From the NCBI GenBank assembly GCA_963715335.1, contig CAVQRZ010000025.1, positions 132,936-196,935 on the forward strand: a stretch of DNA of 64,000 nt. The letters are read 5' to 3'. The position numbers and the translations under genes are program-made. This stretch comes from an uncultured delta proteobacterium (GTDB lineage Bacteria > Desulfobacterota > Desulfuromonadia > Desulfuromonadales > BM103). Within the stretch, counting starts at the first letter, position 1. Each line of letters begins with the position of its first letter. Shown one piece after another: positions 9,675 through 63,824 of this stretch. The notes under the pieces were generated by a model that searched no databases, had not been told where the DNA came from, and saw nothing but the letters and a program-made list of their open reading frames with translations.

Positions 9675-10982
9675 ATGAGCGAAAAAACCTTTCAGAAAAG
9701 AATCGTATCTCCGGCAAAAGTCTTGCGGGGAGAGATATCCGTTCCGGGTGACAAATCGATTTCGCACCGCTCGATCATGCTTGGATCGCTGGCGGAAGGC
9801 ACGACCCGTGTCAGCGGTTTCCTCATGGGCGAAGACAACCTGTCTACCTGGAAAGCATTCGAGGCCATGGGCGTGGCGATTAGTCAGACCGGTGCCGATG
9901 CGCTCGAAATAACAGGTGTCGGGATCGACGGACTTGCAGAGCCTGGAAACGTGATCGATTGCGGTAATTCAGGAACGACAATGCGCCTGATGTCAGGGTT
10001 GCTCGCCGGACAGAACTTTTTCTCAGTCCTCACAGGTGACAAGTACCTCCGAAAAAGGCCAATGAAGAGAGTCGTCACGCCACTGACTGCCATGGGCGCC
10101 CGGATCTGGGGTCGTGATGGCGGTGAGAGGGCGCCACTGGCTATCCGGGGAGGTTCCCTCACACCGCTCAACTATGCATCGCCAGTCTCCAGTGCACAGG
10201 TGAAGTCTGCAATCCTTCTGGCCGGCCTGTCAGTGGAGGGAGAAACAACGGTGACGGAGCCACACTTGTCGCGTGATCACAGCGAGCGCATGCTGACATG
10301 TTTCGGGGCCGATGTCCGGCCGTTCGAGGGAGGCGTCACTTTGCTTGGCAGGCCTCGACTGGCTGCGCAGCAGATCACGGTTCCCGGAGACATTTCATCA
10401 GCAGCCTTTTTCATGGTTGCCGGGCTAATTACACCCGGTGCCGAGCTTCTGATCCGCAATGTTGGTATCAACCCGACCCGTAGCGGAGTGATTGATATCC
10501 TGACGGCCATGGGTGGGCGACTCGAATTGCACGATATCAGGGAGCAGTCGGGAGAACCGGTTGCCGATGTCCTGGTTCGCTATAGCCAACTCAAAGCAAT
10601 AGATATCCATGGTGACATGGTCCCTCGCGCCATAGATGAATTCCCGGTAATCAGTGTCGCCGCTGCCCTGGCAGAGGGAACGACCACCATCCGCGAAGCC
10701 GAAGAGCTGCGCGTTAAGGAAACCGACCGCATCGCCGCCATGGTCAGCGAGTTGACGAAGATTGGCGGACAGGTTGAAGCACGCCCCGATGGGATGGTGA
10801 TCAACGGGGTTGAGCGTTTTGACGGTGCGACCGTTTCTTCACACGGGGATCACCGTATTGCCATGAGCATGGCCGTGGCCGCTCTTTCCGCTGTCGGTGG
10901 GGTAACGATCGAGGATACGGGCTGCACGGAGACTTCGTTCCCCGGTTTCTGGGAACTGATTGAAAAGATTCGTGGCGCGTAG
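9675..10982 (+). CDS. aroA: 3-phosphoshikimate 1-carboxyvinyltransferase (EPSP synthase)
   Basis: PGDKSISHR, GNSGTTMRL, SAQVKSA, RVKETDRI, DHRIAMS motifs. Confidence 0.98.
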   Translation: MSEKTFQKRIVSPAKVLRGEISVPGDKSISHRSIMLGSLAEGTTRVSGFLMGEDNLSTWKAFEAMGVAISQTGADALEITGVGIDGLAEPGNVIDCGNSGTTMRLMSGLLAGQNFFSVLTGDKYLRKRPMKRVVTPLTAMGARIWGRDGGERAPLAIRGGSLTPLNYASPVSSAQVKSAILLAGLSVEGETTVTEPHLSRDHSERMLTCFGADVRPFEGGVTLLGRPRLAAQQITVPGDISSAAFFMVAGLITPGAELLIRNVGINPTRSGVIDILTAMGGRLELHDIREQSGEPVADVLVRYSQLKAIDIHGDMVPRAIDEFPVISVAAALAEGTTTIREAEELRVKETDRIAAMVSELTKIGGQVEARPDGMVINGVERFDGATVSSHGDHRIAMSMAVAALSAVGGVTIEDTGCTETSFPGFWELIEKIRGA

Positions 10983-11120
10983 CGCGTGGCGTGACAACCA
11001 AAATGCTAAAACTACGAGAGGAACAATTTCCAAGAATGTTTTTGACATACAAACAACTGAATTCATGCACTGATAAATATTCGTTTTTCCTCGCGCCACG
11101 CGCCACGTGCCACGCGCCAC
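10971..11120 (+). repeat. Heptamer inverted-repeat element with about 100-nt AT-rich spacer at the aroA-cmk junction
   Basis: Left arm cgtggcg cgtagcg cgtggcg (contains the aroA TAG); right arm cgccacg cgccacg tgccacg cgccac, ending 10 nt before the cmk ATG. Confidence 0.9.
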
Positions 11121-11130
11121 TTTTTCAACC

Positions 11131-35140: not shown

Positions 35141-36081
35141 TGGGTAAGCTGATCAAGACAACAGTCAAAAAACCCAACATGGCGGTCGAGATTGCCGGCA
35201 TCAAACTGCGCAACCCGGTCATGCCCGCTTCAGGGACCTTCGGCTACGGCGAAGAGTACGCACCTTTCCTCGACCTGGAAAAGATTGGCGCAATCGTCAC
35301 CAAGGGTTTGTCATTGAAGCCGAAGGCCGGAAATCCGACTCCGCGAATCGCCGAGACAGTCAGTGGCATGCTGAACGCCATCGGCCTGCAGAATGTCGGC
35401 ATCGAGGCGTTTATCCAGTACAAAATGCCTTTCCTGCGCACTGTCAACACTCCGGTCATTGTCAACTTTTTCGGCAACACCCTGGAAGAGTATGGCGAAG
35501 TCGCAAAACGCCTGAACGACATCCCTGAGATTGCGGCTGGAGAGCTTAATATCTCCTGTCCGAACGTCAAACAGGGCGGGATTGTTTTCGGCACAGACCC
35601 CAAGGCTGCCAGCGAAGTCGTTGCGCTGGTGCGCAAGAACCTGCAAAAGCCGTTGATCGTCAAATTGACACCAAACGTGACCGATATCACGGTCGTGGCA
35701 AGGGCGGTGGAAGAGGCCGGCGCCGATGCGATTGCCTGCATCAACACCATCACCGGTATGTCAGTGGATGTCCGCACCCGCAAGCCGAGAATAGCCAACC
35801 GCACCGGCGGTCTTTCCGGCCCGGCGATCCGTCCGATAGCCGTGCGCATGGTGCACCAGGTCGTGCAGACCGTCTCGGTGCCGGTCATCGGCATCGGTGG
35901 CATCTCACGTCCGATGGATGCCCTTGAATTCCTGATTGTCGGTGCCAGGGCGGTACAGGTCGGCACGGCCAATTTTGTCGACCCCTCAGTCATGCAGACG
36001 ATTATCGACGGGATCGAGGAGTTCTGTCTTGACGAGGGAATCGAGGATATCCACGAACTGATTGGTAGCCTCAAGCTCTGA
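35137..36081 (+). CDS. pyrD: Dihydroorotate dehydrogenase B catalytic subunit
   Basis: ASGTFG, GN.TPRI.ET, NISCPNV, KLTPN, GGLSGPAI.P. Confidence 0.96.
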   Translation: MMGKLIKTTVKKPNMAVEIAGIKLRNPVMPASGTFGYGEEYAPFLDLEKIGAIVTKGLSLKPKAGNPTPRIAETVSGMLNAIGLQNVGIEAFIQYKMPFLRTVNTPVIVNFFGNTLEEYGEVAKRLNDIPEIAAGELNISCPNVKQGGIVFGTDPKAASEVVALVRKNLQKPLIVKLTPNVTDITVVARAVEEAGADAIACINTITGMSVDVRTRKPRIANRTGGLSGPAIRPIAVRMVHQVVQTVSVPVIGIGGISRPMDALEFLIVGARAVQVGTANFVDPSVMQTIIDGIEEFCLDEGIEDIHELIGSLKL

Positions 36082-36217
36082 GTGGCGCGTGGCGCGTGGC
36101 GAGAGAAGGCATGATCAACGTTTTTTATGAAAATCAGTGCCAAAATTCTGAGATGGTAGACTGTACAGATAATCCACCAGTCTTGAATCATTAAGTTTTT
36201 TCGCGCCACGCGCCACG
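36081..36217 (+). repeat. Heptamer inverted-repeat element with about 100-nt AT-rich spacer at the pyrD-nucleotidyltransferase junction
   Basis: Left agtggcg cgtggcg cgtggcg starting at the pyrD TGA; right cgccacg cgccacg ending 8 nt before ATG. Confidence 0.88.
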
Positions 36218-41242: not shown

Positions 41243-41383
41243 CGAAGTGCGAGGTGCGTAGCGCGATGTGCGAAAAGCATCATGCCTGACAACTTTTTAT
41301 ACCAAATGATTTTTGGGATAATCTGAGTTAAAGATGCTTTTGTAACGAATTCTTCTTTCGCACTTCGCACCTCTCACTTCGCG
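41243..41383 (+). repeat. Heptamer inverted-repeat element (CGAAGTG type) after scpB
   Basis: Left cgaagtg cgaggtg cgtagcg cgatgtg cgaaa; right tttcg cacttcg cacctct cacttcg; spacer about 85 nt. Confidence 0.88.
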
Positions 41384-41873: not shown

Positions 41874-42176
41874 ATGACAAAACCAGGCAAACCGAATACG
41901 AAGAGCTGGGAGGCACTCTGCAGCCGATGCGGCCGATGCTGTTTCGAAAAGATCGATTTCGAGGGACGCATCTACTACACGGGACTGCCGTGTGAATATC
42001 TCGATACCGAGACGAAGCGCTGCCATGTCTACGATGAACGCGACGAGAAGCGTCCCGGCTGCGTGCGCCTGACATCTGAAAATATCAAAAAAGGGTTCCT
42101 GCCGGCAGACTGCGCTTACGTAGCCGACATCGAGGATTATCCTGCTCCGATAATGCCGGAAGATGAGGAAATATGA
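41874..42176 (+). CDS. YcgN/YkgJ-like CxxCxxCC cysteine-cluster protein
   Basis: WEALCSRCGRCC..K, C.YLD.ET.RC.VY..R, LPADCAY. Confidence 0.82.
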   Translation: MTKPGKPNTKSWEALCSRCGRCCFEKIDFEGRIYYTGLPCEYLDTETKRCHVYDERDEKRPGCVRLTSENIKKGFLPADCAYVADIEDYPAPIMPEDEEI

Positions 42177-42388
42177 AGTGCGAGGTGCGCTGTGTGAGAT
42201 GCGAAAACTCTAAAGTAAAAGCAAATATATCTCTCGCAGAGGCGCAGAGCGCGCAAAGAAAGAATAATAGACAGCTGTAAACTCTTGAAGTTTTGGAAGC
42301 CTCTGTGCTCTCAGCGTCTCATCTGAATGATGCGAATGGGCGAAAGCTAAAGATTTTTCACGCCTCGCGCTTCGCACCTCACGTTTCA
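42174..42388 (+). repeat. Heptamer inverted-repeat element containing a nested CGCAGAG-family element (42232-42345)
   Basis: Left tgaagtg cgaggtg cgctgtg tgagatg cgaaaa (starts at the TGA stop); right ttttca cgcctcg cgcttcg cacctca cgtttca. Confidence 0.85.
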
Positions 42389-45074: not shown

Positions 45075-45088
45075 TTGAGGAGGGGAAA

Positions 45089-46585: not shown

Positions 46586-46600
46586 ATAAATATTCTTTTC

Positions 46601-48174: not shown

Positions 48175-48184
48175 ATCCGGATAA

Positions 48185-48239
48185 GAGGAAAGGGGGAAGT
48201 GGAAAGAGGTATACCCTCTAACCCCTAACCGCTTTCCCC
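48185..48239 (+). repeat. Purine/pyrimidine heptamer-like inverted element with no spacer
   Basis: gaggaaa gggggaa gtggaaa gagg-tata-ccctct aacccct aaccgct ttcccc. Confidence 0.5.
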
Positions 48240-48280
48240 AAATGGTTCTCAACGTTTAATTTTCTAACTTTAATTTTAAT

Positions 48281-48310
48281 TTGACATAATAGTGTTTAAT
48301 TGTGTATAAC
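48281..48310 (+). promoter_or_regulatory. Sigma70-type promoter upstream of wza
   Basis: TTGACA-18 nt-TATAAC with upstream TG, in AT-rich context. Confidence 0.5.
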
Positions 48311-48413
48311 TAGCGGCAATAAGTCATCATGACTTCAGGGGGTTACCATATCTGGTCATGTTGCGAGCTGAACAGTTTCCTGTTAACATGCCTTTATTAT
48401 GAGCGGATTTGTC

Positions 48414-49481
48414 ATGAATAAAACATTTCTGATGGTGCTTGCAGGGGTTGGGTTTGTTCTTTCCCTGTGCGGTTGTGTGCGGTACGAAGAGTTGCCGCCG
48501 GGTACCGTAAGGGACATCAATGGTGGCAGCAGTGCGATCCTTGAACTTCAGGACGTCAAGGTGCCGCAGCCGACTCCGGAAGCGGAAGTCATCACTGAAT
48601 ATAGGGTTGGCCCGGGTGACGTCCTGACCATAAATGTCCCGGGGCTCATAGATACCCACGGCAATAACAACGAAAAAACCCAGAATTACCAGGGCTTCCG
48701 AGTCTCGAGCAGCGGCAGGATCCTGCTCCCCCTGGTCGGTGCTGTTGATGTTGATGGACTGACCATCGAAGAAATCCAGTCACTTCTCACCAAAGAAATC
48801 AAAACCTACATCAAGAAACCGATGGTCACGGTCGAGATTCGCGAATTTAAGTCGCAACCGCTCTACCTCCTTGGCAAGTTCAACATGCCCGGTCTTTATT
48901 ACATGGATCGTCCGACCAATGTGCTACATGGCGTCTCCATGGGCAATGGACTGCACGAAACGGCCAACCTGCGCAGCGCCCGTCTTTTGCGATCCGAACG
49001 GGTTCAGCCGGTTGATATTTATCATCTTCTTTATAACAATGACTTGCGGCAGAACGTGCAACTGCGACCTGGCGACACGATTTTTGTGCCAGGCAACGAA
49101 GAGCAGCAGGTGTTTGTCTTTGGCCAGGTCGACAAGCCAGGGCCGGTACAAATGGTGAACGGCCGGCTGAATCTCCTTCAGGCTTTGAGCACTGCGTCTG
49201 TAGGATCCGGGTCGAACAAATCTTACCCTTACGATCAAGAACGGGTTCGCATTATCCGGTCTCTTTCGCCGACCCAGGGTCAACTAATGGTGGTTGATTT
49301 AGGGAAGATGATGGATGGACATGCCATGCCGATGCCTTTGATGAATGGTGACATCATCTATGTCCCGACAAACGCTGCTGGTACCTGGAATGAAACGATC
49401 TCGCAGATTCTACCTTCCTTACAGCTAATATCGGGCCTTTTACAGCCGTTTGTGCAAATCGAATACCTTCAGGATAATTAA
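48414..49481 (+). CDS. wza: Polysaccharide export outer-membrane lipoprotein (Wza-like)
   Basis: Lipobox LCGC, YRVGPGDVL, G.I.LPLVG, SLBB repeats, C-terminal WN..ISQILP. Confidence 0.9.
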   Translation: MNKTFLMVLAGVGFVLSLCGCVRYEELPPGTVRDINGGSSAILELQDVKVPQPTPEAEVITEYRVGPGDVLTINVPGLIDTHGNNNEKTQNYQGFRVSSSGRILLPLVGAVDVDGLTIEEIQSLLTKEIKTYIKKPMVTVEIREFKSQPLYLLGKFNMPGLYYMDRPTNVLHGVSMGNGLHETANLRSARLLRSERVQPVDIYHLLYNNDLRQNVQLRPGDTIFVPGNEEQQVFVFGQVDKPGPVQMVNGRLNLLQALSTASVGSGSNKSYPYDQERVRIIRSLSPTQGQLMVVDLGKMMDGHAMPMPLMNGDIIYVPTNAAGTWNETISQILPSLQLISGLLQPFVQIEYLQDN

Positions 49482-49524
49482 TGGCTTGGTGTCATGAAGG
49501 CATGATTTTCAGATTAATTACTAC

Positions 49525-49563
49525 AAAGACCGCCGACCTGTTTGGTCGGGCGGTCTTTTCTTT
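49525..49563 (+). terminator. Rho-independent terminator-like hairpin after wza
   Basis: AAAGACCGCC.GACC...GGTCGGGCGGTCTTT followed by T-rich tail. Confidence 0.65.
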
Positions 49564-49589
49564 TCTGTCTGTTAGTGACTTGGTTGAGA

Positions 49590-51881
49590 ATGACTGTGAA
49601 GAAGCACGCCGATAGCCTCGCGCCGGATCTGGAGCCGATCCTCCTGCGCATGATCAATGTCATCCGCCGCAGGTTCAAGATCGTCCTGCTGATATTCTTC
49701 CTGTCCCTCCTCTCTGCGTGGAGCTTCATATCATTACAAACCCCGATCTACCAGGCCGTCGTTACCCTTGACCTGTCTCGCGCAGCGGAGCAGGGGCAGT
49801 CTTCCGAAGATATCGTCGAGATCCTGAAGTCACGTTCCCTGGCAAGCCAGGTTGTTCAACAGATGAATCTCGACTGGCAGGTTGCCAGCTTGTCACCGGG
49901 GCTCGACATCGAAATCGGCCGTTTCGCGGTCTCCAGAGACATCCCGGGACTGAGAATGGTCATTGACGAATTGCCACTCTACAAGGTCTCTGACCTTGGT
50001 GGCCGTTTTGTCGGTGAAGGCCGTAGCGGCGAGCCTTTCCGCGCCGCAGGAATCGACCTGTTGCTTGATATCCGCAAAGGGCAGGCCGGCCAGCAACTGA
50101 CTATCGAACATCGCCCCAACCTTGTAAATGCCGAGGAACTTATCAGCAACATAACTGTTGTTCATCGAGTTGGTGATGGTAATATCGTCAGAATCATCAG
50201 CTCCGGCCCCGTTCCCGAGCAGACCCGTGATCTGGCTAATGCCCTGATCGAGACCTACCGGGCTCAACGGTTATCGCAAGCGAACCAGTCTCTGCTAGAG
50301 ATCGAGGCGCAAATCACGGAAACCCGTGAGGCCCTGAACATTGTATCGAAGGACCTGCACAATGTTAGCCAGCAGGCCGGATTCGTCGGGTTGACGAGAG
50401 ATGCCGACACGCTGGCCGGCAACCTGGTCCAACTCGAACGGGAGCAGTCCCAACTCAAAGGCCAACGACTAAAGGTCGAACGTGCATTCGTGCAATTGCA
50501 GCAGTCCCTCAAAGATGGTTCAGTATTCCTCCCACCCGTTTTTAACGAATTCCCGCACATCGTCGAGGTTTCACTTCGCCTCGCCGAACTGAGGGCCAGG
50601 CAGAAGGAGCTCCTGATCGAATTTACTCCGGCTCACCCGGATGTTGCCGAGATCCAGGATGCAATCAACGAGACGCAAAGCAACCTGCTTGGCCGTTATG
50701 CAGCGGTTATCAACGAACTGGATAACGGGATTGAAAGTCTTGATGCCAGGATTGCCGAGAACTCGGCCCGAATCGATTCTCTGCCGGAAGCGGAGCTCCT
50801 CAGACTGGAAATGAGGCGCAGCACTCAGGCGGAAATCCTTGCCTCCCTGCAGCAGAGACAGCGTACCCTGCAGCTTGAACAGGCCCTGGTCGCTGATCTG
50901 GTTCGTATTGTAGATCCTGCCGTGACACCTCGCACGCCTGTCTGGCCAGATAAACGAAAAATCTTCGCCGTCAGTGGTGTCGCGGGTCTGTTGCTCGGTT
51001 TTCTCGCCGCGTTACTGCTCAGCGTGGCCGACCGGCGGTTCAACACCGTCGAGGAAATCCAGGCAAAACTGAAGCTGCCGATCTATGGCGTTATCCCGCG
51101 TATCCCCGATGTTGACGTCGAACCGGGGGTGCCGGTTGCCGTGCAGATACCCAAGGCTCCGGTGGTCGAAGCCTTCCGAGCCTTGCGGACTCGACTGCAT
51201 TTTGTGACTAACCGGGAGAAGCACCAAATCATCCTGGTGACCAGCTCGCTGCCCGGTGAAGGCAAGTCTACGACCTCCACCAACCTGGCTGTCGTTTTAG
51301 CGCAGACCCGGGCGAAGGTTCTGCTGATCGGCTGCGACCTGCGTCGGCCGTCGCTGCACGAGATGTTTGGCCAGACCAATGTCCCCGGCCTGGTTGATCT
51401 CCTGAACGATGATAGACAGGACGCCATTCGCCATATTGCCAGCCCACGCATCGATTTTCTGCCAGCCGGTTCGATCCCGTTGAACCCGTCGGAGATCCTC
51501 GATTCCGGGCGTATGCGCAACTTCCTCGACACAGTCCGCAGCCGTTATGATTACGTGGTGATTGATGCCCCGCCGGTGTTGCCGGTGACCGACGCGCAGA
51601 TTCTGTCACCGCTGGCCGACGTCACCCTGGCAGTCATTGAACCGTGCCGGGTGCCGGAAAAGGCGGCGATGCAGATGGTCGAATCGCTGCAGTCTGTAGG
51701 TGCGAAGATTTCGGGAGTGGTGATAAATGACCGCATGGGACGCGGGTTCAGGTATTACGGTTCTTATAACTACTACGGTAACAAGAATTACAGCGGCTAC
51801 TATGGCGAGAACCCTGACGACCTGGCCGACGGACCGATCAGCCGTACCGCAAAAAAGATCTGGGAGAAGCTGAATTACTGA
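49590..51881 (+). CDS. Polysaccharide copolymerase / BY-kinase (Wzc-like), copy 1
   Basis: Two TM helices, coiled-coil periplasmic region, PGEGKST Walker A, VVIDAPP Walker B, Tyr-rich tail. Confidence 0.9.
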   Translation: MTVKKHADSLAPDLEPILLRMINVIRRRFKIVLLIFFLSLLSAWSFISLQTPIYQAVVTLDLSRAAEQGQSSEDIVEILKSRSLASQVVQQMNLDWQVASLSPGLDIEIGRFAVSRDIPGLRMVIDELPLYKVSDLGGRFVGEGRSGEPFRAAGIDLLLDIRKGQAGQQLTIEHRPNLVNAEELISNITVVHRVGDGNIVRIISSGPVPEQTRDLANALIETYRAQRLSQANQSLLEIEAQITETREALNIVSKDLHNVSQQAGFVGLTRDADTLAGNLVQLEREQSQLKGQRLKVERAFVQLQQSLKDGSVFLPPVFNEFPHIVEVSLRLAELRARQKELLIEFTPAHPDVAEIQDAINETQSNLLGRYAAVINELDNGIESLDARIAENSARIDSLPEAELLRLEMRRSTQAEILASLQQRQRTLQLEQALVADLVRIVDPAVTPRTPVWPDKRKIFAVSGVAGLLLGFLAALLLSVADRRFNTVEEIQAKLKLPIYGVIPRIPDVDVEPGVPVAVQIPKAPVVEAFRALRTRLHFVTNREKHQIILVTSSLPGEGKSTTSTNLAVVLAQTRAKVLLIGCDLRRPSLHEMFGQTNVPGLVDLLNDDRQDAIRHIASPRIDFLPAGSIPLNPSEILDSGRMRNFLDTVRSRYDYVVIDAPPVLPVTDAQILSPLADVTLAVIEPCRVPEKAAMQMVESLQSVGAKISGVVINDRMGRGFRYYGSYNYYGNKNYSGYYGENPDDLADGPISRTAKKIWEKLNY

Positions 51882-52034
51882 CTCCAAAACGACCGCAACG
51901 TGGCAGGTTAGCCATATTGCATGGGTTAATCATTGATTGTTCTCTTCGGTTACATTCTGGTATATTGACACGCATACCGAGGATTCCTAACCACACGATA
52001 TAATTATCTTCCTTGTCGACCAGGTGATTTCAAC

Positions 52035-54365
52035 ATGTCAGACGACCAGTTAAATCCACTTCCTGAACAGGGCGAAAAAGAAGCCCACCTGCTTGACTAC
52101 CTGCATGTTGTCCAACGTCGCTGGAAGGTCGCTCTTGTGGTATTCCTGCTGGTCTTTGTCGTCGTGGCGATCAAGACCTTCCTTGAGACACCAATCTACC
52201 AGGCGACAGCGACGCTCAGGATCGGTCTGAAACCGGACACTTCGCAGGAAGTTCTGGAAAAGCGCAAAGAGCGCTACTACAGCATGGAATCCGAGCTTCA
52301 GATGTTGAGCTCATTCAAGGTCGCTGAACGTGCGGCGCAGCTTCTGCAGCTCAACTGGCATCTTCAGGGTAAATCGAAAGAATCCGTTCTGCAGATTCGT
52401 CGACTGATTGTTCAGGATAACATTGATTTGTTAAAGCTCCAGGTTCTCGACGGCGGGCGCTTCAGGCTCTTCACTGACTCCGACGTCCTGCTCGAAGATG
52501 GCCGGAGCGGAATCCCGTTCGCAGAAAAGGTCAAGGGCCTCATCGAACTTGCTGCAGTTACACCGGGAGACGTCTACGAACTGGTGCGCCTTACTTCCGA
52601 TCAGGCTGCCGGCATGATCAGCCAGGGGGTCAACGCCTACCCGATCGGTGATATGAGTTCGATGATCGGCATATCAGTGGAGAGAACCGACCCGAAGGCT
52701 GCCCGCGATGTTGCCAATGCGATCGCAACGGCTTACGTCAACCAGGATCGCGAACAGAAGCTCAATGAAGCCGCAACCATCCTGGATATGATCGATCAGC
52801 AGCTGGCAGCCCTGGGTGCCCAGTTGAACGTTTCCGAACAGAACCTCCAGAAATTCAAGATTCAAACCGGTCTGCAGCGACTCAGCCCCGAAGGCGCCAG
52901 CATGATCGATGTCGCCATAGCCCTCGAAAGACAGCGTGCCGACCTGCTCCTGAAGAGGCAGAAGATTGAAGAGTTTCAAAAGGATCCGGGCTACAGTGCT
53001 CTTGAACCCTCGATGGTCGAATCGCTCCCCGGAGTACCGGAACTGCTCACCCGGTTACTTGAGCTGCGTGGCATCAAGGGAGAATTATTGCGTGAGTACA
53101 CGCCGTCGCACCCGGATGTGATTGACGTCGAAGGCAAGATTGGTCTTCTGAAAGCAGAGATAGCGACGGCTGCAGGTGTTGCCATCAAGTCTCTTGATCA
53201 GGAATTAGTCGCGATAGACAGTGAACTGGCGATCAGCGGCAAGAAGCTGGAACAGGTCCCCGAGGAAGAACTTGAATTGGCCAGGTTGAGCAGGGCCAGT
53301 TCTGTCAACGCCGGGCTCTACAGCTACCTGCTGCAACGCCAGCAGGAAGAACGCATTGCCCAGGCGTCGATTACCAGCAAGGTCGAGATTGTCAATGAGG
53401 CGCTTCTTCCTGCATCACCGATCAAGCCGAACAAGAAGAAAGCTCTTGGTATGGGGCTGTTGATCGGCCTTCTGCTTGGTGTCGGTCTGACCTTCCTGCT
53501 CGAATACCTCGACCGGACGATCAAGGATGAAGATGAGATCGAGGAAAAGTTCGGCCTGACTGTGCTTGGTACCATACCGCGTATCTCGCAAGCCATCAAT
53601 AGCGACAAGCGACAGCTGGTGACGCATCTGGAACCACATTCGATCCCTGCCGAAGCCTTTCTGGCCTTGCGCACCAATATCCACTTTATCCTGACCAACC
53701 AGAAGCACAAGACGCTGATGCTGACCAGCTGCCTGCCCGGCGAAGGAAAGTCGACGGTTGCGGTGAATCTGGCTGCGACCATGGCGCAGACCGGTGCCAA
53801 AATCCTTCTGGTGGGATGCGACCTGCGCCGACCGTCCCTTTATGCCGCATTGGAACAATCTGACACACCGGGCTTATCCGACATGCTTTCAAAAGGTTCA
53901 AAATCGGCACTCCGGCGATTGGATGCTCTCGGCTTTGATTTCATCCCGGCGGGGACAGAGCCGCCCAACCCAACGCAATTGTTGAGTTCAGATGCAATGA
54001 AGCGATTCCTCGAAGTCGCCAAGCAGCAGTACGATTTTGTCATTCTCGATGTTCCGCCGTTGATACCGGTTACCGACACCTTGATCCTCTCCTCATTGGT
54101 TGATTTAAGCCTTATGGTTTTGGAGCCATGCCGTATCCCGGAAAAATTACTTAAGCGGGCCATACAGCTTTTACATAACCATGAAGCGGAAATTGCCGGT
54201 GTTGTCATCAACGACAAAACCGGGAAGGGGGCTAAATATTATGGCGGCTACAACTACTACAACAGCAAGTATTACGAGGGGTATTATCGTCGCGCTACTG
54301 ACGGACCCAAGCCTCCTCTGTTTATGAGGGTGATTGCGAAGGTCTGGAGGTTTATTAATGGTTAA
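52035..54365 (+). CDS. Polysaccharide copolymerase / BY-kinase (Wzc-like), copy 2
   Basis: HLLDYL Wzz-like start, YTPSHPDV, PGEGKST, VILDVPP, Tyr-rich tail. Confidence 0.92.
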   Translation: MSDDQLNPLPEQGEKEAHLLDYLHVVQRRWKVALVVFLLVFVVVAIKTFLETPIYQATATLRIGLKPDTSQEVLEKRKERYYSMESELQMLSSFKVAERAAQLLQLNWHLQGKSKESVLQIRRLIVQDNIDLLKLQVLDGGRFRLFTDSDVLLEDGRSGIPFAEKVKGLIELAAVTPGDVYELVRLTSDQAAGMISQGVNAYPIGDMSSMIGISVERTDPKAARDVANAIATAYVNQDREQKLNEAATILDMIDQQLAALGAQLNVSEQNLQKFKIQTGLQRLSPEGASMIDVAIALERQRADLLLKRQKIEEFQKDPGYSALEPSMVESLPGVPELLTRLLELRGIKGELLREYTPSHPDVIDVEGKIGLLKAEIATAAGVAIKSLDQELVAIDSELAISGKKLEQVPEEELELARLSRASSVNAGLYSYLLQRQQEERIAQASITSKVEIVNEALLPASPIKPNKKKALGMGLLIGLLLGVGLTFLLEYLDRTIKDEDEIEEKFGLTVLGTIPRISQAINSDKRQLVTHLEPHSIPAEAFLALRTNIHFILTNQKHKTLMLTSCLPGEGKSTVAVNLAATMAQTGAKILLVGCDLRRPSLYAALEQSDTPGLSDMLSKGSKSALRRLDALGFDFIPAGTEPPNPTQLLSSDAMKRFLEVAKQQYDFVILDVPPLIPVTDTLILSSLVDLSLMVLEPCRIPEKLLKRAIQLLHNHEAEIAGVVINDKTGKGAKYYGGYNYYNSKYYEGYYRRATDGPKPPLFMRVIAKVWRFING

Positions 54366-54375
54366 ATCCTTAACG

Positions 54376-54866
54376 CGTAGCGCGTAGCGAGTGGCGCGGA
54401 AGACAGATTTTCAATTTTATTTTATGGAGGGTTTGTTATGGCTTTTGAGGATTTGGAAGTATGGAAAAGATCAGCACGTCTTTCTGCTGATCTATACCGT
54501 GAATTTGCTCCCCTAAGAGATTATGGCTTTAAAGATCAAATAACCCGGTCTGGATTGTCAATACCAAGCAACATTTCAGAAGGTCATGAACGTGCTTCAG
54601 CAAAAGAGAATATGAACTTTTTAAATTATGCTAAAGGCTCTTGCGGTGAATTACGTACCCAGATTTATATCGGCATGGATATAGGTTACATAGACAGAGA
54701 TAAAGGGATATTCTGGCTAAAAGAAACGGAATCAATCTCAGCAATGATCGGTGGACTAATAAGGACAAAAAAGAACTACCTGCAAAGCAAAAAATAGAGC
54801 AGTTAACCTGTACCATTTCACACTAACTTTTGAAAAGTTTTTTCGCGCCACTCGCTACGCGCCACG
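54376..54866 (+). mobile_element. Putative four-helix-bundle cassette 1, bounded by mirrored heptamer inverted repeats
   Basis: Left 54376-54398 cgtagcg cgtagcg agtggcg cg versus right 54844-54866, 22/23 complementary; AT-rich interior carries the gene. Confidence 0.6.
54438..54797 (+). CDS. Four-helix-bundle protein (23S rRNA IVP family)
   Basis: FEDLEVWK, DQITRSGLSIPSNISEG.ER, FL.YAKGSCGEL.TQ; SD GGAGG. Confidence 0.93.
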   Translation: MAFEDLEVWKRSARLSADLYREFAPLRDYGFKDQITRSGLSIPSNISEGHERASAKENMNFLNYAKGSCGELRTQIYIGMDIGYIDRDKGIFWLKETESISAMIGGLIRTKKNYLQSKK

Positions 54867-54871
54867 AAATA

Positions 54872-55783
54872 ATGATAGATTTTCATACACATTTGTTGCC
54901 CGCCCTGGACGACGGCGCCCTAACGGTCGACGACTCAATAGCCATGGCGAAAGCATTGGAATCGTTCGGTTACAAGACCGTCTGCTGCACACCGCACTGC
55001 ATCAAGGGCTATTACGATCTTGTCCCGCAACGGGTGCGGGAAGCGACACTGATGCTGCAGGCAGACCTCGACAACGAAGGAATTCAACTCGAACTCTGGC
55101 CGGGCATGGAGTACATGCTCGACGAGTTTTTCCACGAATTCGCCGAGAATCTCCTGCCGCTCGGCAACACCAAACTCGTTCTCTGCGAAGCCCCGCCGCA
55201 GGCACATCCGGGATTTGTGCAGGAGGGGTTGGAATTGATTGTAGAGAAGGGGTTTGTGCCGTTGGTTGCTCATCCGGAGAGAACTCAATATTTCTATGAG
55301 AAAATAACGCAGCGCGTGGCGCGTGGCGCGTCGCGCGAAAAATCTGAAAAGATAAATAGTAAATTATCTTATGAATTTGAAGACTCCGTTGCCTCTAGTG
55401 CCAATCTCAGTTCACCGCTAGATTTTATTAAAAAATTATTCTCGCCACGCGCCACGCGCCACGCGCCACAAGACCATGACTCCTCAGCCCATCCCTCAAG
55501 TGCCTCTGCCCAGGAGAATTGCCTCTACCACGCCAATCTCGGCTCCTTCACTGGCTTCTACGGCCCAAAAGTCCAACGAAACGCCTACGAACTCCTGAAA
55601 CTTGGCGCCTATACCGCTCTCGCCAGCGACTTGCACGAAAGCCGGTCTGCTGCGGATGTCCTTGTGCAGGATAAGTTCGAGAATAATCCTTTTTTGAAAA
55701 AACTCTCGGAGTTTGATGGTGTCGTTCGGGAGATACAAAAGTCAGTTAAGCCTGGGGAAGGGGAGCAAATCGGATTGTTTTGA
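54872..55783 (+). CDS. CpsB/CapC (PHP-family) protein-tyrosine phosphatase with an in-frame repeat insertion
   Basis: MIDFHTHLLP.LDDGA, TPH, AHPER, ASD.H; 84 aa between HPER and NLGS. Confidence 0.9.
   Translation: MIDFHTHLLPALDDGALTVDDSIAMAKALESFGYKTVCCTPHCIKGYYDLVPQRVREATLMLQADLDNEGIQLELWPGMEYMLDEFFHEFAENLLPLGNTKLVLCEAPPQAHPGFVQEGLELIVEKGFVPLVAHPERTQYFYEKITQRVARGASREKSEKINSKLSYEFEDSVASSANLSSPLDFIKKLFSPRATRHAPQDHDSSAHPSSASAQENCLYHANLGSFTGFYGPKVQRNAYELLKLGAYTALASDLHESRSAADVLVQDKFENNPFLKKLSEFDGVVREIQKSVKPGEGEQIGLF
55308..55470 (+). repeat. Heptamer inverted-repeat element inside the cpsB-like CDS
   Basis: Left cgcagcg cgtggcg cgtggcg cgtcgcg; right (cgccacg)x3 cgccaca; AT-rich spacer about 107 nt. 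Confidence 0.9.
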
Positions 55784-55785
55784 TA

Positions 55786-56287
55786 TGAAGTGCGAAGCGC
55801 GAGGCGCGAAGTGCGATTTGATTCAATTATATTTTGGAGGGTTTTATGGGATTTGAGAATCTTGATGTTTGGAAGAGGGCAGTGAAGCTTAGTGCTGAGC
55901 TTTATAAGGAATTTAAGAATCTGAAAGATTATGGTTTTAAGGACCAAATTACTCGTTCAGGGTTGTCGATACCGAGTAATATAGCAGAGGGTGAAGAGCG
56001 CAAGTCTGATAAGGAATGCATTAACTTCCTTAATTACGCCAAAGGCTCTTGCGGAGAGCTGAAAACACAAATTTATATTGGGATGGATATTGCCTACATA
56101 GACCAAGCTATTGGTAAAAAATGGCTGGATGAAACAGATAAAATTTCATCTATGTTGGGCGGTTTGATGAGAAGAAAAGCACGAGATGCGAAATGCGATG
56201 TGCGAGGTGGGAAAAAACAAGAATCAAATTGATTCTTTTTGCTGGGTTTTAATTTATCTCACTTCGCGCCTCGCGCTTCGCACTTCA
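55786..56287 (+). mobile_element. Putative four-helix-bundle cassette 2, bounded by a perfect 28-bp heptamer inverted repeat
   Basis: tgaagtg cgaagcg cgaggcg cgaagtg (55786-55813) is the exact reverse complement of 56260-56287. Confidence 0.65.
55846..56232 (+). CDS. Four-helix-bundle protein (23S rRNA IVP family), paralog 2
   Basis: 80/111 aa identical to 54438-54797 by hand; the C-terminal tail is encoded by an extra heptamer arm at 56182-56209. Confidence 0.93.
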   Translation: MGFENLDVWKRAVKLSAELYKEFKNLKDYGFKDQITRSGLSIPSNIAEGEERKSDKECINFLNYAKGSCGELKTQIYIGMDIAYIDQAIGKKWLDETDKISSMLGGLMRRKARDAKCDVRGGKKQESN

Positions 56288-56310
56288 AAAAAGAAATCGG
56301 AGATTTTTTA

Positions 56311-57273
56311 ATGCGTCATTACGATTCAATTAAGCGCGTCCTGGTTACGGGCGGCGCAGGCTTCCTCGGCTCGCATCTTTGCGAACGCCTGATCAACGAT
56401 GGTCACGACGTACTTTGCGTCGATAATTTCTATACCGGCCGGCGGGCAAACATCGCTCATCTGATCGACCATGCGAACTTCGAGGTGATGCGGCATGACG
56501 TGACCTTCCCCCTGTACGTTGAGGTCGACGAGATCTACAACCTGGCGTGCCCGGCGGCGCCGATCCACTACCAGTTCGACCCGGTGGCGACGACCAAGGT
56601 GAGTGTCCACGGTGCGATCAACATGCTCGGCCTGGCCAAGCGAACCAAGGCGAAGATCTTTCAGGCTTCGACCAGCGAGGTCTACGGTGACCCGACCGTA
56701 CATCCGCAGAAGGAAGATTACTGGGGCAACGTTAACCCGATCGGCCTGCGTTCCTGCTACGACGAAGGCAAGCGCTGCGCCGAAACGCTCTTCTTCGATT
56801 ACCGCCGTCAGCACAAAGTTGCCATCAAGGTGGCACGCATCTTCAATACCTACGGTCCGCGCATGCATATCAACGATGGCCGGGTGGTCTCCAATTTCAT
56901 TGTCCAGGCTTTGAAAGGGGAGGATATCACCATCTACGGCGATGGCTCCCAAACCCGCTCTTTCTGCTACTGCGATGACCTGATTGAAGGCTTTATTCGT
57001 CTCATGGACACCCCTGATGAGATCACCGGACCGATGAACCTCGGCAACCCCGGTGAATTCACCATCAAGCAACTCGCTGAAATCGTTATCGAGATGGTCG
57101 GTTCAGGCTCGAAGCTGATCTATAAGCCGCTGCCGAGTGATGACCCGAAGCAGCGGCAGCCGGATATCTCTTTTGCGCAGGCAACTCTTGATGGTTGGTC
57201 CCCGAATATTAAGCTCAGGGATGGTCTGCAGAAAACGATCGAGTATTTTGATGATTATCTGAAAAACGGATAA
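56311..57273 (+). CDS. UDP-glucuronic acid decarboxylase family (UDP-xylose synthase-like) SDR
   Basis: [52 protein letters not shown]. Confidence 0.95.
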
Positions 57274-57280
57274 TAGTGTT

Positions 57281-57310
57281 TCTCGCAGAGGCGCGGAGTG
57301 CGCAGAGAAA
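57281..57310 (+). repeat. CGCAGAG-family left arm (partial copy 4)
   Basis: tctcgcagaggcgcggagtgcgcagagaaa, near-identical to 42232-42261. Confidence 0.7.
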
Positions 57311-57354
57311 GATTGAGCTATTGTTTGTGTTAAAACATTAATGCGCTATCTCTT

Positions 57355-57381
57355 TGGGACAGGCTTGATAAGCCTGTCCCA
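57355..57381. terminator. Hairpin (probable terminator) after the SDR gene
   Basis: TGGGACAGGCTT-gat-AAGCCTGTCCCA 12-bp stem. Confidence 0.6.
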
Positions 57382-57394
57382 TTCTGTTTCACGA

Positions 57395-57450
57395 TTGACA
57401 ATACTCAATGATACGACTTAAGATGCAAGTGCGTTCAACCGTTGAACGCA
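57395..57450 (+). promoter_or_regulatory. Sigma70 promoter plus palindromic operator upstream of the EPS-associated MarR gene
   Basis: TTGACA-18-TAAGAT followed by perfect TGCGTTCAA-ccg-TTGAACGCA (57430-57450). Confidence 0.65.
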
Positions 57451-57541
57451 TATAAGTTTCTGATATAAGAGCCATTCTTATAACAAAGTAATGTTAGTTA
57501 TTATACTCTTGGCATTGCGCGTCCCGCGTCCCGGTTTTTAT

Positions 57542-57879
57542 ATGAGTGAAGAATTAAGCTACAAAGTCATCAAACTGATCGAGCAGGATGCCGAGATCTC
57601 CCAACGGGAACTTTCCAGGGAACTGGGAGTAAGCCTTGGTAAGGTCAACTATTGCCTGCGTGCGTTGATCGACAAGGGGTGGGTGAAGGCGAAGAACTTT
57701 AAAAATAGTTCGAACAAAATGGCTTATCGTTATCTGTTGACCCCTCACGGGGTGCAGGAGAAAGCCGCTCTGACGATCAATTTTTGAAGAGGAAGTTGGT
57801 GGAATATGAGGTTTTGCATCGAGAGATTGAGAGCTTGCGGAGTGAGGTGGAGGAGTTATCGTTAAAAGACAGGTTGTAA
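57542..57879 (+). CDS. EPS-associated MarR-family transcriptional regulator (one frameshift in a T run near 57780)
   Basis: SQRELS.ELGVSLGKVNYCL.AL..KGWVK..NF.NS.NK..Y.Y.LTP.G..EK; adding one T restores FLKRKLVEYEVL..EIE.L. Confidence 0.88.
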
Positions 57880-57905
57880 CTCTTTAAACTGAATCGATTG
57901 AGACA

Positions 57906-59075
57906 ATGAAAAAAATCCTTTCAATATTTGGGACCCGCCCCGAAGCGATCAAGATGGCTCCAGTCATCAAAGAACTAGAGAAACATCCTAATCGATTTCA
58001 GAGTGTTGTCTGTGTGACTGCCCAGCACCGACAGATGCTCGACCAGGTACTCGACTTATTTGAAATCGTTCCCGATTACGATCTTGACCTGATGCGGCCC
58101 GGGCAGGATCTGTTTGATATTACGACCAATATCTTGCTTAGAATCAAGCCTGTTCTGGAAGAGGTCAGCCCGGATATTGTCCTTGTCCATGGCGACACGA
58201 CAACCACTATGGCGACTTCTTTGGCAGCTTTTTACACTAAGATCCCTGTTGGTCATGTCGAAGCAGGCCTGAGAACTCGTAATAAATATGCTCCGTTCCC
58301 GGAAGAGATCAACCGTAGAGTCGCCGGTGTGGTTGCAGATCTGCACTTCGCTCCGACCGAAACCGCCAGGCAGAACCTGCTGTGCGAAGGCATACCTGAC
58401 GAATCTATCCACGTCACTGGCAACACTGTCATAGATGCCCTGATGATGACCGTCAAAAAGATCAAAAATGAGAATCTAAACGAGCGTATCGAAAAAGACC
58501 TTATCGACCGATTCCCCTCCCTTATAAAGATTTTTTCTCGCCACATGCCATGCGCTGCACGCCTCGTCCTGGTCACAGGGCACCGCCGTGAGAATTTCGG
58601 CGAAGGTTTTGAAAATATTTGCAGGGCTCTGAAACAGATCGCTGATCGGTATGATGATGTCGAAATCGTCTATCCGGTGCATCTTAATCCCAATGTTCAT
58701 GGCCCAGTGAATCGCATTTTAGCCAACCATCCTCGCATCCATTTGATCGACCCGATTGACTATCTGCCTTTTGTCTACATGATGGACAAGTCTTACCTGA
58801 TTATTACAGATAGTGGAGGGGTCCAGGAAGAAGCGCCTTCACTGGGTAAACCGGTATTGGTGATGCGCGATATGACTGAGCGTCCAGAGGCCTTGGATGC
58901 TGGGACTGTGCAGCTGGTTGGTGCTAATACTACACAGATTGTTACGGAGTCGGTACGGCTGCTTGACAACTCAAATGCTTATGAATTGATGGCGCATGCT
59001 CATAATCCATTCGGTGATGGCAAGGCAGGTGTGAAGATTATTGAGGTCTTAGGCTCTTGGTGTCATTCGCTCTAA
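57906..59075 (+). CDS. wecB: UDP-N-acetylglucosamine 2-epimerase (non-hydrolysing)
   Basis: [44 protein letters not shown]. Confidence 0.96.
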
Positions 59076-60564
59076 AAAAACTGGCATATTCAGTCAGCCC
59101 ATCTTTTTTCATCCCTTTCTTCAGAGAGTCGAATCTTCCGACCTCGGTTCTCGATTAGCTTCCGGAATTTTTTGGTCCATGTCAGGTTCAATAATTTCGA
59201 GGGGATTGATGCTTTGCGCGACAATACTGGTCGCGCGAATGCTTGGTAAAACTGTTTATGGTGAATTGGGCATGATTCAGTCCACTGTCGGAATGTTTGG
59301 CGTTTTTGCTGGCTTCGGACTTGGTCTGACAGCCATCAAGCATGTAGCCGAATATCGACTTAGCGATCCTGAACGTGCCGGTCGTATCATTTGCCTCTCA
59401 GGTATTGTAGCTCTGGGTACTGGGGGGCTCATGGCATTGGGGCTGTTTGTTTTTGCTCCTTGGCTTGCTGAGCAAACCATTAACGCACCACACTTGACCA
59501 ACATTCTCCGTGTCGGCGCTTTGATCCTTTTTATTAATGCTATTAATGGCGCTCAAACCGGTGCTTTGTCAGGTTTTGAAGCATTCAAAACAATAGCACA
59601 TGTAAACCTTTATATAGGTCTGTTGTCGTTCCCTGTCCTTATTTGCGGAGCATACTTCGGAGGTTTGTCTGGTGCTGTTTGGGCTATGGTTATTAACCTT
59701 TGTTTTAATTGGTTGCTCAACCACCTTGCTTTACGAAAAGAGGCTCAAAGGCATTGCATAAAGCTTAACTTTAAGGGCTATCGGCAGGAACTGCCTATTT
59801 TGTGGCGTTTTGCACTCCCTGCAACACTTTCCGGAATCATGGTTGGACCAGCAAACTGGGTGTGCCGTGCAATGCTATCTAAACAGAGTAATGGCTATGA
59901 TGAAATGGGGGTTTTTAACGGCAGCACTTGTGTTCCAGGGCCTATTGCTGTTTGTTGGTGGTATGCTAAGCGGTCCATTGTTGTCTATGGTTTCCAGCGC
60001 GAGTGAAGAAATCTCCAATGAGCTTGGAACGGTCAATATTCTCTCGACTTGGGCGCTTGGCGTTATTACCGCAATTCCATTGCTCTGTTTTCCAGAGATA
60101 GTCCTGTTGGCATTAGGTGATGATTATGCCACAGGTGGCTTTAGACTTACATTTGCCCTGATTGTATTTTGTACAACGATCGTAATGTACAAGGAAGGTC
60201 TTTCAAGAGTTTTGACTGCCAAAAGTTTACTTTGGTGGGGTTTTTTCAGTAATTTATTTTGGGCCATCATTTTGATCGCTTGCACTGTTTTTATGGTTCG
60301 TTGGGGAGCTGTTGGTCTGGCAGCTTCACTAACCATAGCTTATATACTGAATACTCTCATTCTTGTCCCTCTTTACTCTTCGCGCAATTGGTACCCAAAG
60401 GGACTCTTCTTTCCTATGAATCGGCTTCCATTTGGGCTGCGATTGTTTTTTTGTTGTTTCTGAATATTGTCGATGCATCGTTGGTTCTCAGAAGTTTTTC
60501 ATTCATCATAAGTCTGTTGATAGTTACAATATCATTCAGAAAAATGTTAAAACATTCAGAATAA
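59060..60564 (+). CDS. Wzx-type oligosaccharide flippase (about three apparent frameshifts)
   Basis: Hydrophobic multi-TM fragments 59179-60006, 59810-60463 and 60259-60564 tile in different frames; ARMLG...YGELG.IQST. Confidence 0.75.
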
Positions 60565-60575
60565 TGAGTCTGTGA

Positions 60576-61800
60576 ATGATGAACATCTTAATGATTTCAC
60601 CTGATTCTCCGCCAAAGAATTCACCAGAAGCGATTCAGGTCGGTCGTTATTTGCATGAATTAGACAAGAGACATCACATTTCTCTTGTCACAACTCCTGT
60701 TGGAACGTGGTTGGGTAGAAGAAGACTCTGGCCTCACTTTAATGTTGTCCAATACGGATGTTTTCATCCTAAAATTGCCTTTTCACAAAATAATTTCCCG
60801 GATATTGGCCTCTCGGCATTTTAAATTTCTATCGGTACCTGACAAAGATTTCTGGCTTAAGTCAAGAACGTCCTGGGTCACAAAACGTCTGCACCAGAGA
60901 CCTGATTTAATTTACTCACGTTCATTGCCTGTGAGTTCAGCGACAATTGCGTTTGGATTGAAAAAAAAACTATGCATCCCGTGGGTTATGCATTTAAGTG
61001 ACCCTTGGAGTGATAGCCCTTACTTGGCTTTTGGGCCATTGAAAAGGAAATTGTTAAACTTTGAAATGAAGTACTTTAATGCAGCTGACGCTATAACTGT
61101 CACAACGGAGGGGCTTGCAGAGTTTTATAGGTCCAAATACCCTCTCTGGGCTGAAAAGATATCTGTTTCGCATAATGTTATGCCAGAAATATCACCAAAG
61201 ACTTCAAGACAAAATATTTACGGGAAAAAGCTCACTCTGGTTTATACGGGAGCTTTATATGGGCAACGTCGACCAACAACGATTCTGAGAGCCATCGATA
61301 GTTTGAAAAAATCGAATGTGAATATTCTTGAGCGATTGGAAGTTAAATTTGTAGGAAACATAACGGAAGACATCCGAAAAGAGATAAACAGTTTTATGCT
61401 GTCAAATATATCAGTTCTTGGCCAGCGAAATTATTCTGAGGTGCTTGAATTACAGTCGCATGCCGACATTATGATTTCGTTTGAGCCCGAGGGTGACGAC
61501 CAGTTATTGAAAACGTTCTTGCCTTCAAAAGTGCTTGATTATATAGCCGGTCATAAGCCAGTCATTGCTATCACGCCAGAAAATAGTGAATCTTGGAAAT
61601 TATGTAATCGTGGATATGGTTGGGCTATTAAGCCAGACGACTACAAAGGTTTGGCGTTATTGTTAAGTGGTTTTGTTGAGAAGGTAGGCTGTGGAGATAG
61701 AACACTGTTAAGCTTTACATCATCAACATTGGAAGAATATTCAGTAACTTATTGCGTCGAAAAGTTGTCAAAGCTTATGGACTCGCTCGTAAAAAGTTGA
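60576..61800 (+). CDS. GT-B (family 4-like) glycosyltransferase (one frameshift near 60700)
   Basis: MNILMISP..PP; PWVMHLSDPW; YTGALYGQR; PSKVLDY. Confidence 0.78.
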
Positions 61801-61942
61801 GAGCTTTTAGCGAATAAGGTGATTAATGCTTTTGATCGGCAAGAAGGTTACGGCCTTTAATGAATTTGATTAATTCGGAGAAAATAAAATTTAGGCTTAC
61901 TTCGAATATTATAGAAAGGATTGTAGCCGCAAGGACTCATCT

Positions 61943-62635: not shown

Positions 62636-62689
62636 TATGATTGTTTTGGTTAATATCATTTATGTTTGACGAATTAATCATGTTAGGGC

Positions 62690-63792: not shown

Positions 63793-63824
63793 CATGAGAG
63801 CAAATGCCTGAATCAGCGAAAATA

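Follow-up and report, generated by a model that had tools for sequence, protein, structure and literature searches.

Small four-helix-bundle genes enclosed by inverted heptamer arms form cassettes that turn over at operon junctions

We analyzed a 64,000-nucleotide stretch (the window) of contig CAVQRZ010000025.1 from an uncultured delta proteobacterium of the order Desulfuromonadales, whose genome is referred to below as G000. A polysaccharide operon in the window has the gene order wzc, cassette 1, cpsB, cassette 2 and a uxs-like gene, and each cassette carries a small four-helix-bundle gene between inverted arms of tandem 7-nt units. The four-helix-bundle gene of cassette 1, in the wzc-cpsB junction (slot 1), is designated H1, and that of cassette 2, in the cpsB-uxs junction (slot 2), H2. 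G002, G003 and G004 are congeners, and L-numbers denote individual loci in G000 and other genomes. The features of the locus are the following.

52035..54365, plus strand: host gene for a wzc-type tyrosine autokinase (TIGR01007 domain match); its stop lies 10 nt before the left arm of cassette 1
54376..54398, plus strand: left arm of cassette 1, purine-rich heptamers of the CGTGGCG class
54438..54797, plus strand: H1, 119 aa (PF05635 / TIGR02436 / PRK12275)
54844..54866, minus strand: right arm of cassette 1, 22/23 complement of the left arm, ending 5 nt before the cpsB ATG
54872..55783, plus strand: host gene for a cpsB/CapC PHP phosphatase, carrying an arm-bounded in-frame insert
55308..55343, plus strand: in-frame left arm within cpsB, CGTGGCG class
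55435..55469, minus strand: in-frame right arm within cpsB; the pair encloses a conserved amphipathic-looking segment (F/L-K-K-L-F/W)
55786..55813, plus strand: left arm of cassette 2, four heptamers of the CGAAGTG/CGAGGTG class, 2 nt past the cpsB stop
55846..56232, plus strand: H2, 128 aa (PF05635 / TIGR02436)
56182..56209, plus strand: inner purine-rich array, degenerate, near the 3′ end of H2; the right arm, 50 nt away, could pair with it instead
56260..56287, minus strand: right arm of cassette 2, 28/28 complement of the left arm, ending 23 nt before the next ATG
56311..57273, plus strand: host gene for a uxs-like NAD-dependent sugar epimerase/decarboxylase (profile match)

A first-pass annotation of the sequence had described both cassettes, and most of its figures were reproduced. 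The arms of cassette 2 are exact reverse complements (28/28; 55786-55813 versus 56260-56287) and those of cassette 1 match at 22/23 positions (54376-54398 versus 54844-54866); the in-frame cpsB pair and the 56182-56209 array had been overlooked. H1 and H2 proteins are identical at 80 of the first 111 residues, as had been counted by hand, and both exceeded the cut-offs of the suggested family profiles: PF05635 gave 107 and 116 bits (cut-off 33.8), TIGR02436 103 and 109 (cut-off 24). The cassette interiors are AT-rich, also as described, with 36-40% GC against 53-60% in most flanking coding windows. The common leader reported for the two genes is present but unspecific, as a similar AT-rich GGAGGG leader was found at two Y1 transposase genes of G000.

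No sigma-70-like promoter was detected in 54250-56400, against 3.0 in shuffled sequence. Likewise no Rfam family matched in 44000-64000, the cassette flanks being protein genes and not rRNA, and no direct repeats longer than 4 nt were present in the 15 nt outside the arms of the window cassettes. The stated absence of a transposase, integrase or reverse transcriptase agreed with the profile searches: these families gave no match in 49 window open reading frames (ORFs) with Pfam and 12 with NCBIfam, a few short ORFs being unscanned and several having no match of any kind.

The annotation had predicted that inverted arms would be enriched around members of the protein family. We counted a gene as armed when an inverted-repeat score of 13 or more flanked it. 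By this measure 92 of 133 scored family genes are armed (45/59 in the same order and 47/74 in other phyla), compared with 2/118 random small genes of G000, one of which (score 29, as H2) may be H2 itself. The period of the arms in the 92 armed genes is 7 in 69, 6 in five, 8 in five, 9 in three and unclear in ten. The left arm contains more G than C in 78 of them and less in nine. Four to five units per arm were found in 46/60 left and 41/60 right arms, and in 68 of 87 measurable armed cassettes the left arm lies within 30 nt of the upstream stop. A crude ORF-based orientation test scored 11 loci as antisense; these proved to be mostly shadow frames when 16 of the 30 armed loci suspected by that test were re-checked with Pfam (12 sense, one antisense (L047), one with a convergent downstream gene and two unresolved). 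Units track protein clades: the unit distance to the nearest-protein neighbour is 2.19, against 3.42 in permutations (n=68). We consider the association of gene and arms strong; the mechanism considered below is in part inferred.

Comparison of 30 loci of the wzc-cpsB region revealed how the two slots vary. In several genomes the slot-1 allele has other units, and in L006, L019, L022, L025, L027, L029 and L031 the slot is short or lacks the gene; all slot-1 genes are oriented with the operon. Between congeners wzc, both cpsB halves and uxs are 82-93% identical, whereas the slot-1 gene is only 62-69% identical, no closer than to its counterparts in other genera (59-74%). The family gene is under purifying selection, with a ratio of nonsynonymous to synonymous substitution (dN/dS) of 0.04-0.44 and a median of about 0.1 (19 unsaturated of 48 pairs). 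Divergence of the slot-1 gene despite this selection means replacement, with cross-overs near the arms. In slot 2, H2 is present with the same arms in G000 and G003, the G003 copy now having a stop, while G002 and G004 carry GxxExxY genes (TIGR04256) with different inverted arms at this place (L021:2473-2835; L018:949-1328); the slot is short or empty in L013, L016 and L025. Among relatives, 19 of 29 scored GxxExxY genes have inverted arms, mostly of ~9-nt units. No GxxExxY gene was found in G000, and a regular expression for nonamer arms gave 0 matches there, though such words are visible by eye. Nonamer-like words of the GxxExxY-arm type occur without a GxxExxY gene in the window at 42174-42388, nested in a heptamer doublet, and at ~57277-57310.

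At the araD-araA junction of Bacteroidaceae the gene and its arms are present together in 2 of 30 genomes, and the remaining 28, including a 98%-identical neighbour, have a plain spacer of 31-99 nt. In the filled alleles the native spacer has been replaced, and target duplication is not evident. One genome has a sense cassette in the manC-manB junction and, in a paralogous junction, an antisense cassette of another clade and unit. Genes are also lost: a stop or truncation was seen in 12 of 68 strong family matches among relatives, some possibly being assembly errors, and a fourth, frameshifted family gene of G000 lies at a site where relatives hold a CAGAAT-type cassette. Overall, the cassettes are discrete units that turn over as DNA at operon junctions and are gained with their arms. 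A cassette spans the distance from the upstream stop to the next start, faces the operon, swaps with alleles or with GxxExxY-nuclease cassettes, and often breaks. This bears out the earlier proposal of insertion into operons, since orthologous junctions are filled, empty or otherwise filled and the history of the gene departs from that of its flanks.

Two other kinds of element were also compared. A phase-variable invertible segment does not fit one true antisense case in 16 suspects, of another gene clade and unit, and RNA contigs of the G292 locus described below contain no strand-change joint. Insertion sequences and miniature inverted-repeat transposable elements (MITEs) share the terminal inverted repeats, but the cassettes have neither a transposase of their own nor near-identical dispersed copies.

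The arm pair inside cpsB behaves differently. Orthologues of cpsB (window 55308-55469; L005-L033) contain an in-frame insert in which a conserved F/L-K-K-L-W/F segment lies between heptamer arms; the insert is 42-58% identical within the genus, with one pair at 86%. The arm unit varies by lineage and often matches that of the slot-1 cassette (G000, G002, G017, G025). The G002 and G004 copies of cpsB show frame breaks.

The annotation had tied the arms to the two genes. The pairs are real, but the arms belong to genome-wide families. With an array defined as three or more units of five heptamer classes, the classes being taken from units seen in G000, we found 178 arrays in G000 and two in one shuffled copy. 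Period-7 runs number 158; at periods 8, 9, 10 and 11 there are 28, 60, 8 and 12. A laxer filter yielded more matches at periods 5 and 6 (743 and 340) than at period 7 (164), a comparison that is not on equal terms. Same-class neighbours up to 200 nt apart have the purine-rich arm first in 31 cases and the reverse order in none. A weak partner was detected inward of 29 of the 111 single arrays and outward of none. Gene ends are touched by the outer ends of 91/178 arrays and by the inner ends of 25, so that gene-less arm doublets fill stop-to-start junctions just as cassettes do. Their spacers are AT-rich (GC 0.37, n=20, versus 0.49 in 1615 intergenic stretches), 3-159 nt long and mutually unrelated. 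Thus gene-less doublets with the polarity and placement of cassettes fill other junctions. Neighbouring arrays are of one class in 43/104 against 0.26 expected; together with the change of unit in cpsB, this indicates that arms are also copied or re-written locally. For four of the five array classes, G000 contains a corresponding gene or the frameshifted relic of one. The doublets in the window are the following.

10971..11121, no strand assigned: gene-less doublet, CGTGGCG class, filling the aroA-cmk junction
36081..36217, no strand assigned: gene-less doublet, CGTGGCG class, occupying the junction that follows pyrD; its right arm is short and its end is approximate
41243..41381, no strand assigned: gene-less doublet, CGAAGTG class
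42174..42388, no strand assigned: gene-less doublet, CGAAGTG class, preceding a phosphomutase gene, with nonamer-like words of the GxxExxY-gene type in the spacer

Heptamer doublets also lie on both sides of a MarR_EPS regulator gene (TIGR04176) on G000 C26 at ~855-1450. A MarR_EPS gene of the window (TIGR04176; 57491-57787) ends early, after 98 codons, and sequence resembling its C-terminus goes on in another frame.

G000 has three intact family genes, all armed and with three different units; the other two are 67% and 37% alike to H1. The predicted H1 model (mean confidence, pLDDT, 97.5) is closest in fold to 2GSC (Z 18.4, root mean square deviation (rmsd) 1.4 over 110) and 2RLD (Z 16.1), family structures of five chains each. 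A relationship to Avd, the accessory protein of diversity-generating retroelements (DGRs), had also been proposed. Avd does come next after the S23p fold (Z 13.8/13.6, rmsd ~2, 12% identity; Foldseek rank 11, E 0.028), but the margin is weak, as the next unrelated bundle reaches Z 12.5. The invariant polar residues of the family are Q34, R37, S41, N45, E48, R52, S68 and E71. Members are scarce on mobile replicons (25 of 72,556 plasmids and 0 of 50,697 phages); IMG/VR has 22 family loci, with arms at 9 of 17 distinct ones. Loci L249-L251 encode longer proteins (open frames of 224-368 aa) with only the first half of a four-helix-bundle match, and in L250 words of the TATAGGTC/TATGAC type recur within the gene and after it.

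To the reading that we favour we give about an even chance. It holds that these are promoterless junction-filling cassettes, expressed from the operon and folded out by their arms; exchange would be by homing-like replacement, and the protein would be a pentamer reading its own heptamer. A cassette would comprise 4-5 purine-rich heptamers, a ribosome-binding leader, the four-helix-bundle gene and the complementary heptamers, and would be expressed through the mRNA of the host operon. Pairing of the arms may loop the insert out and so restore the closeness of the flanking stop and start, which would make the insert cheap; the folded stem would be a substrate of RNase III, by analogy with the rRNA intervening sequence of Coxiella. 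The protein is probably a homopentamer like 2GSC, 2RLD and Avd and may read its own heptamer at about one unit per subunit, which would explain both the 4-5 units per arm and the tie between clade and unit. The argument for the pentamer comes from the five-chain homologues, from the contact of all five Avd protomers with RNA and from the number of units per arm. Two divergent family clades (L086-L092 and L072/L076) with 6-nt and 8-nt units are natural controls for this ring geometry. Spread, the most speculative step, might be by replacement akin to homing and not by cut-and-paste, with a donor allele serving to repair a break or fold-back at the arms; a cutting step, if any, would come from another protein. 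The gene-less doublets would mostly be emptied shells and locally copied arms.

Several observations weigh against this explanation. No gene matches the CGGGACG class of G000, and arrays are abundant in G007 (47 matches), G029 (27) and G291 (107), where no cognate gene was found. Nothing resembling the remains of a cassette is visible in the spacers of gene-less doublets. In G291 doublets have multiplied inside a MITE-like unit with hairpins of its own, which means that other routes spread doublets too. The cpsB segment is conserved while its unit changes by lineage, for which simple cassette decay is no explanation. All counts are uncorrected for kinship between sequences. A common genomic site largely confounds the relation of protein clade to unit: as most clades that share a unit share the site as well, co-inheritance is demonstrated and not recognition. 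Proteins 65-75% alike may moreover bear different units. Finally, arm mismatches show no preference for G-U pairs on the sense strand (67 vs 53, p=0.24, with 159 other mismatches in 91 cassettes; 24 vs 20 in the first set); L056, whose arms overlap a self-complementary array, was left out of this test.

The G291 unit (L252-L262) is about 170 nt long and consists of a heptamer doublet with a fixed spacer between two small hairpins; it occurs in many near-identical copies, and no four-helix-bundle gene was found in that genome.

Pairing of the arms is a property of the cassettes themselves. Both window cassettes can fold as long stems of 23-28 bp (z -6.5 and -4.3), and none of 100 shuffles was as stable. 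To compare the arms of relatives, 50 cassettes were grouped by protein clade and not by arm score: the own arm pair was better than arms swapped between relatives in 31 and worse in 16 (p=0.0013, kin not independent). An earlier test with cassettes selected by arm score (53/60) was biased by that selection and is superseded. The mirrored order of unit variants in gene-carrying cassettes, which the annotation had put down to selection for pairing or to arm copying, is therefore real, but it gains no support for RNA pairing from G-U pairs; in the absence of a G-U preference, copying at the DNA level and selection on RNA explain it equally well. Mirroring is absent from gene-less doublets, in which the own pair was better in only 6/28. 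Short perfect palindromes may be selected against.

These data bear on the possibility that the cassettes are mRNA intervening sequences: RNase III would cut the stem, freeing the RNA of the small gene and splitting or re-tuning the operon message, and the protein would chaperone or block the cut. On this view the arms would be maintained for the sake of processing, the function under selection. This is compatible with homing-like cassettes, and we consider it unlikely though not far-fetched. In Coxiella burnetii the 23S rRNA intervening sequence (IVS) encodes an S23p family protein and has a 28-bp terminal stem, which RNase III cuts at the first of several heptamer repeats (PMC4990558). The stems found here are of similar build, the RNase III gene rnc is present in G000, the variant order is mirrored and the cassettes face the direction of the operon. 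Against this, the G-U excess is missing, gene-less doublets are unmirrored, and the in-frame cpsB pair would mean cutting a coding sequence. The protein of the G292 araD-araA cassette matches the 2RLD chain over the stretch compared. Four studies provide RNA contigs that cover this cassette, and one of the contigs extends across both arms. No clean skip of the cassette was present in these contigs, which are blind to cleavage; abundant splicing is thereby disfavoured, and this weighs against splicing only. Two joints do skip the cassette, but other sequence takes its place, 51 letters in one and 134 in the other; the 51 letters match a gene-less sister doublet elsewhere in G292 (L266), and neither joint is a splice. 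The suggested excision from mRNA was not observed. No RNase III cleavage map usable for comparison was found in the literature search.

A rather improbable alternative is that the gene-less doublet is the replicating unit, as in REPINs (doublets of repetitive extragenic palindromic sequences, REPs, mobilized by RAYTs), and that the flanked four-helix-bundle protein is its mobilizer or an adaptor recruiting a trans-acting nuclease or polymerase. The layout resembles that of RAYT genes and REPINs (PMC3116915), with few flanked genes and many doublets of fixed polarity (31 vs 0; 29 vs 0). The units are also lineage-specific, the protein has invariant polar residues and a PD-(D/E)xK-type gene occupies the same slot. 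However, the doublets of G000, with unrelated spacers of 3 to 159 nt, do not derive from a single unit by copying, no catalytic fold is known for the protein, and doublets abound where the family gene is missing. The two Y1 transposases of G000 are flanked by palindromes of their own and not by heptamers; a RAYT as mobilizer was rejected, as the Y1 genes of G000, G007 and G291 have no heptamer arms. These G000 genes (L245 and L247, on C10 and C9; PF01797, Y1/RAYT-like) have clusters of a GGGGACAC-type palindrome on their flanks. The GGGGACAC-type palindrome recurs in the spacer of a heptamer doublet on G000 C14 near 12200.

It is known that quasi-palindromes can be perfected by template switching. 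The arms might then be a mutational by-product, slippage making the heptamer runs and template switching inverting them, with AT-rich genes landing in tolerant junctions and the protein unrelated to the arms. The lack of an RNA wobble signal, the persistence of arrays without a gene and the sharing of class by neighbouring arrays agree with this. We nevertheless regard it as quite improbable, because gene and arms arrive together at a junction that is bare in 28/30 relatives, and the arms flank 92/133 family genes as against 2/118 controls and have an absolute polarity and a period that tracks gene family or clade (mostly 7, 6 and 8 in two clades, and ~9 for GxxExxY). Last, it is highly improbable that an Avd-like protein serves a reverse transcriptase or polymerase that extends both 3′ ends at a break in the chromosome with the same short template, which would give the observed purine-rich-first polarity around captured AT-rich DNA, exact mirroring with no wobble bias and the concerted switch of unit at fixed places in cpsB, and for which Avd is the nearest fold after S23p proteins: PF00078 (RVT_1) has no match in G000, a genome 100% complete by markers, gene-less doublets are unmirrored, and the Avd match is little above unrelated bundles.

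The homing-like cassettes that we favour can be placed beside several known systems. With ORF-bearing rRNA intervening sequences (PMC4990558, PMC11270868) they share the protein family, a length of ~0.45 kb, terminal inverted repeats of ~28 bp, heptamers in the 5′ arm, patchiness and gene decay. They differ in their location, the stop-to-start junctions of protein-coding operons, in numbering several per genome with different units, in being exchangeable with other cargo and in being accompanied by over a hundred gene-less arrays. The family also occurs in rRNA insertions of the candidate phyla radiation (PMC11270868) and in cas loci (PMC3936711). As in the REPIN-RAYT system (PMC3116915), a few genes are flanked by inverted repeats, inverted doublets are present genome-wide and the repeat type is tied to the gene clade. 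Unlike in that system, the arms are tandem heptamers and not palindromic REPs, the gene is PF05635 and not an HUH (Y1) transposase, spacers are unrelated (fixed only in the MITE-like unit of G291), and the gene is swapped rather than stably inherited. The cassettes are thus a variant of the ORF-bearing intervening sequence set in protein-coding operons, with a REPIN-RAYT-like layout, and belong to neither group. DGR Avd may resemble the protein in its four-helix-bundle fold and is itself an RNA-binding pentameric barrel, in which all five protomers contact one RNA element (10.1101/2023.10.23.563531); the 12% identity and the lack of a reverse transcriptase match in G000 set it apart. With integron gene cassettes the likeness is confined to the promoterless, co-oriented layout; window ORFs gave no integrase match, and attC was not searched for.

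Paired heptamer arrays of Geobacter metallireducens have been interpreted as regulator sites (PMC2700814), and the GGGAATC/GGGGA(C/T)T repeats of Xanthomonas and Nostoc, with four units preferred, 70 convergent pairs and positions near stops and starts, as quadruplexes (PMC4692102). Both resemble the arrays described here in having four or five tandem heptamers, opposite-strand pairs at variable distance, locations in and between genes and near stops and starts, and overlapping unit types. Unlike the window cassettes, they are not linked to four-helix-bundle genes in the text of those papers available to us. One GGGAATC-type repeat of 4 units in the supplement of PMC4692102 lies 6 nt past the upstream gene and overlaps the XCC0516 start; no partner arm is recorded for it. 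XCC0516 is the crystallised member of the four-helix-bundle family; xcc0516, S23 and four-helix are mentioned 0 times in the main text of that paper. A search of the literature, with subscription journals and bioRxiv supplements outside its reach, found nothing joining the S23p family to heptamer arms.

Other features were recorded in passing. An element of ~530 nt that bears no gene is abundant across many contigs of G000; its ends are inverted hairpins (AGGGCAACAGATGG-type), and it has no relation to the heptamer arms. In the window, two full-length wzc-type kinase genes stand in tandem at 49542-54365, a ParD/ParE toxin-antitoxin pair lies at 28048-28649, and the runs of short ORFs at 44218-46309 and 59179-60564 resemble single frameshifted genes (a lipoprotein-like gene and a Wzx-type flippase).

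For the protein family, widespread and with solved structures but no function, the result provides a concrete candidate ligand, its own heptamer array, with 4-5 units for five subunits. It also joins observations made separately: the ORF-bearing rRNA intervening sequences, the paired heptamers of Geobacter, Xanthomonas and Nostoc, and the small genes scattered in polysaccharide and housekeeping operons. What the present locus adds is one slot that takes a four-helix-bundle or a nuclease cassette within one genus, and an in-frame arm pair that changes its unit in step with the neighbouring cassette. A wider generalization is possible, though doubtful: S23p/four-helix-bundle proteins may be pentamers that recognise 7-base repeats by sequence and, at gene junctions, cause their own arms to be inserted, exchanged and locally re-written. 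Together with GxxExxY nuclease cassettes they would form a transposase-free class of 'armed' cassettes, of which rRNA intervening sequences would be a special case and which may be the source of the excess of heptamer repeats in bacterial genomes (Mrazek et al. 2007, cited through PMC4692102).

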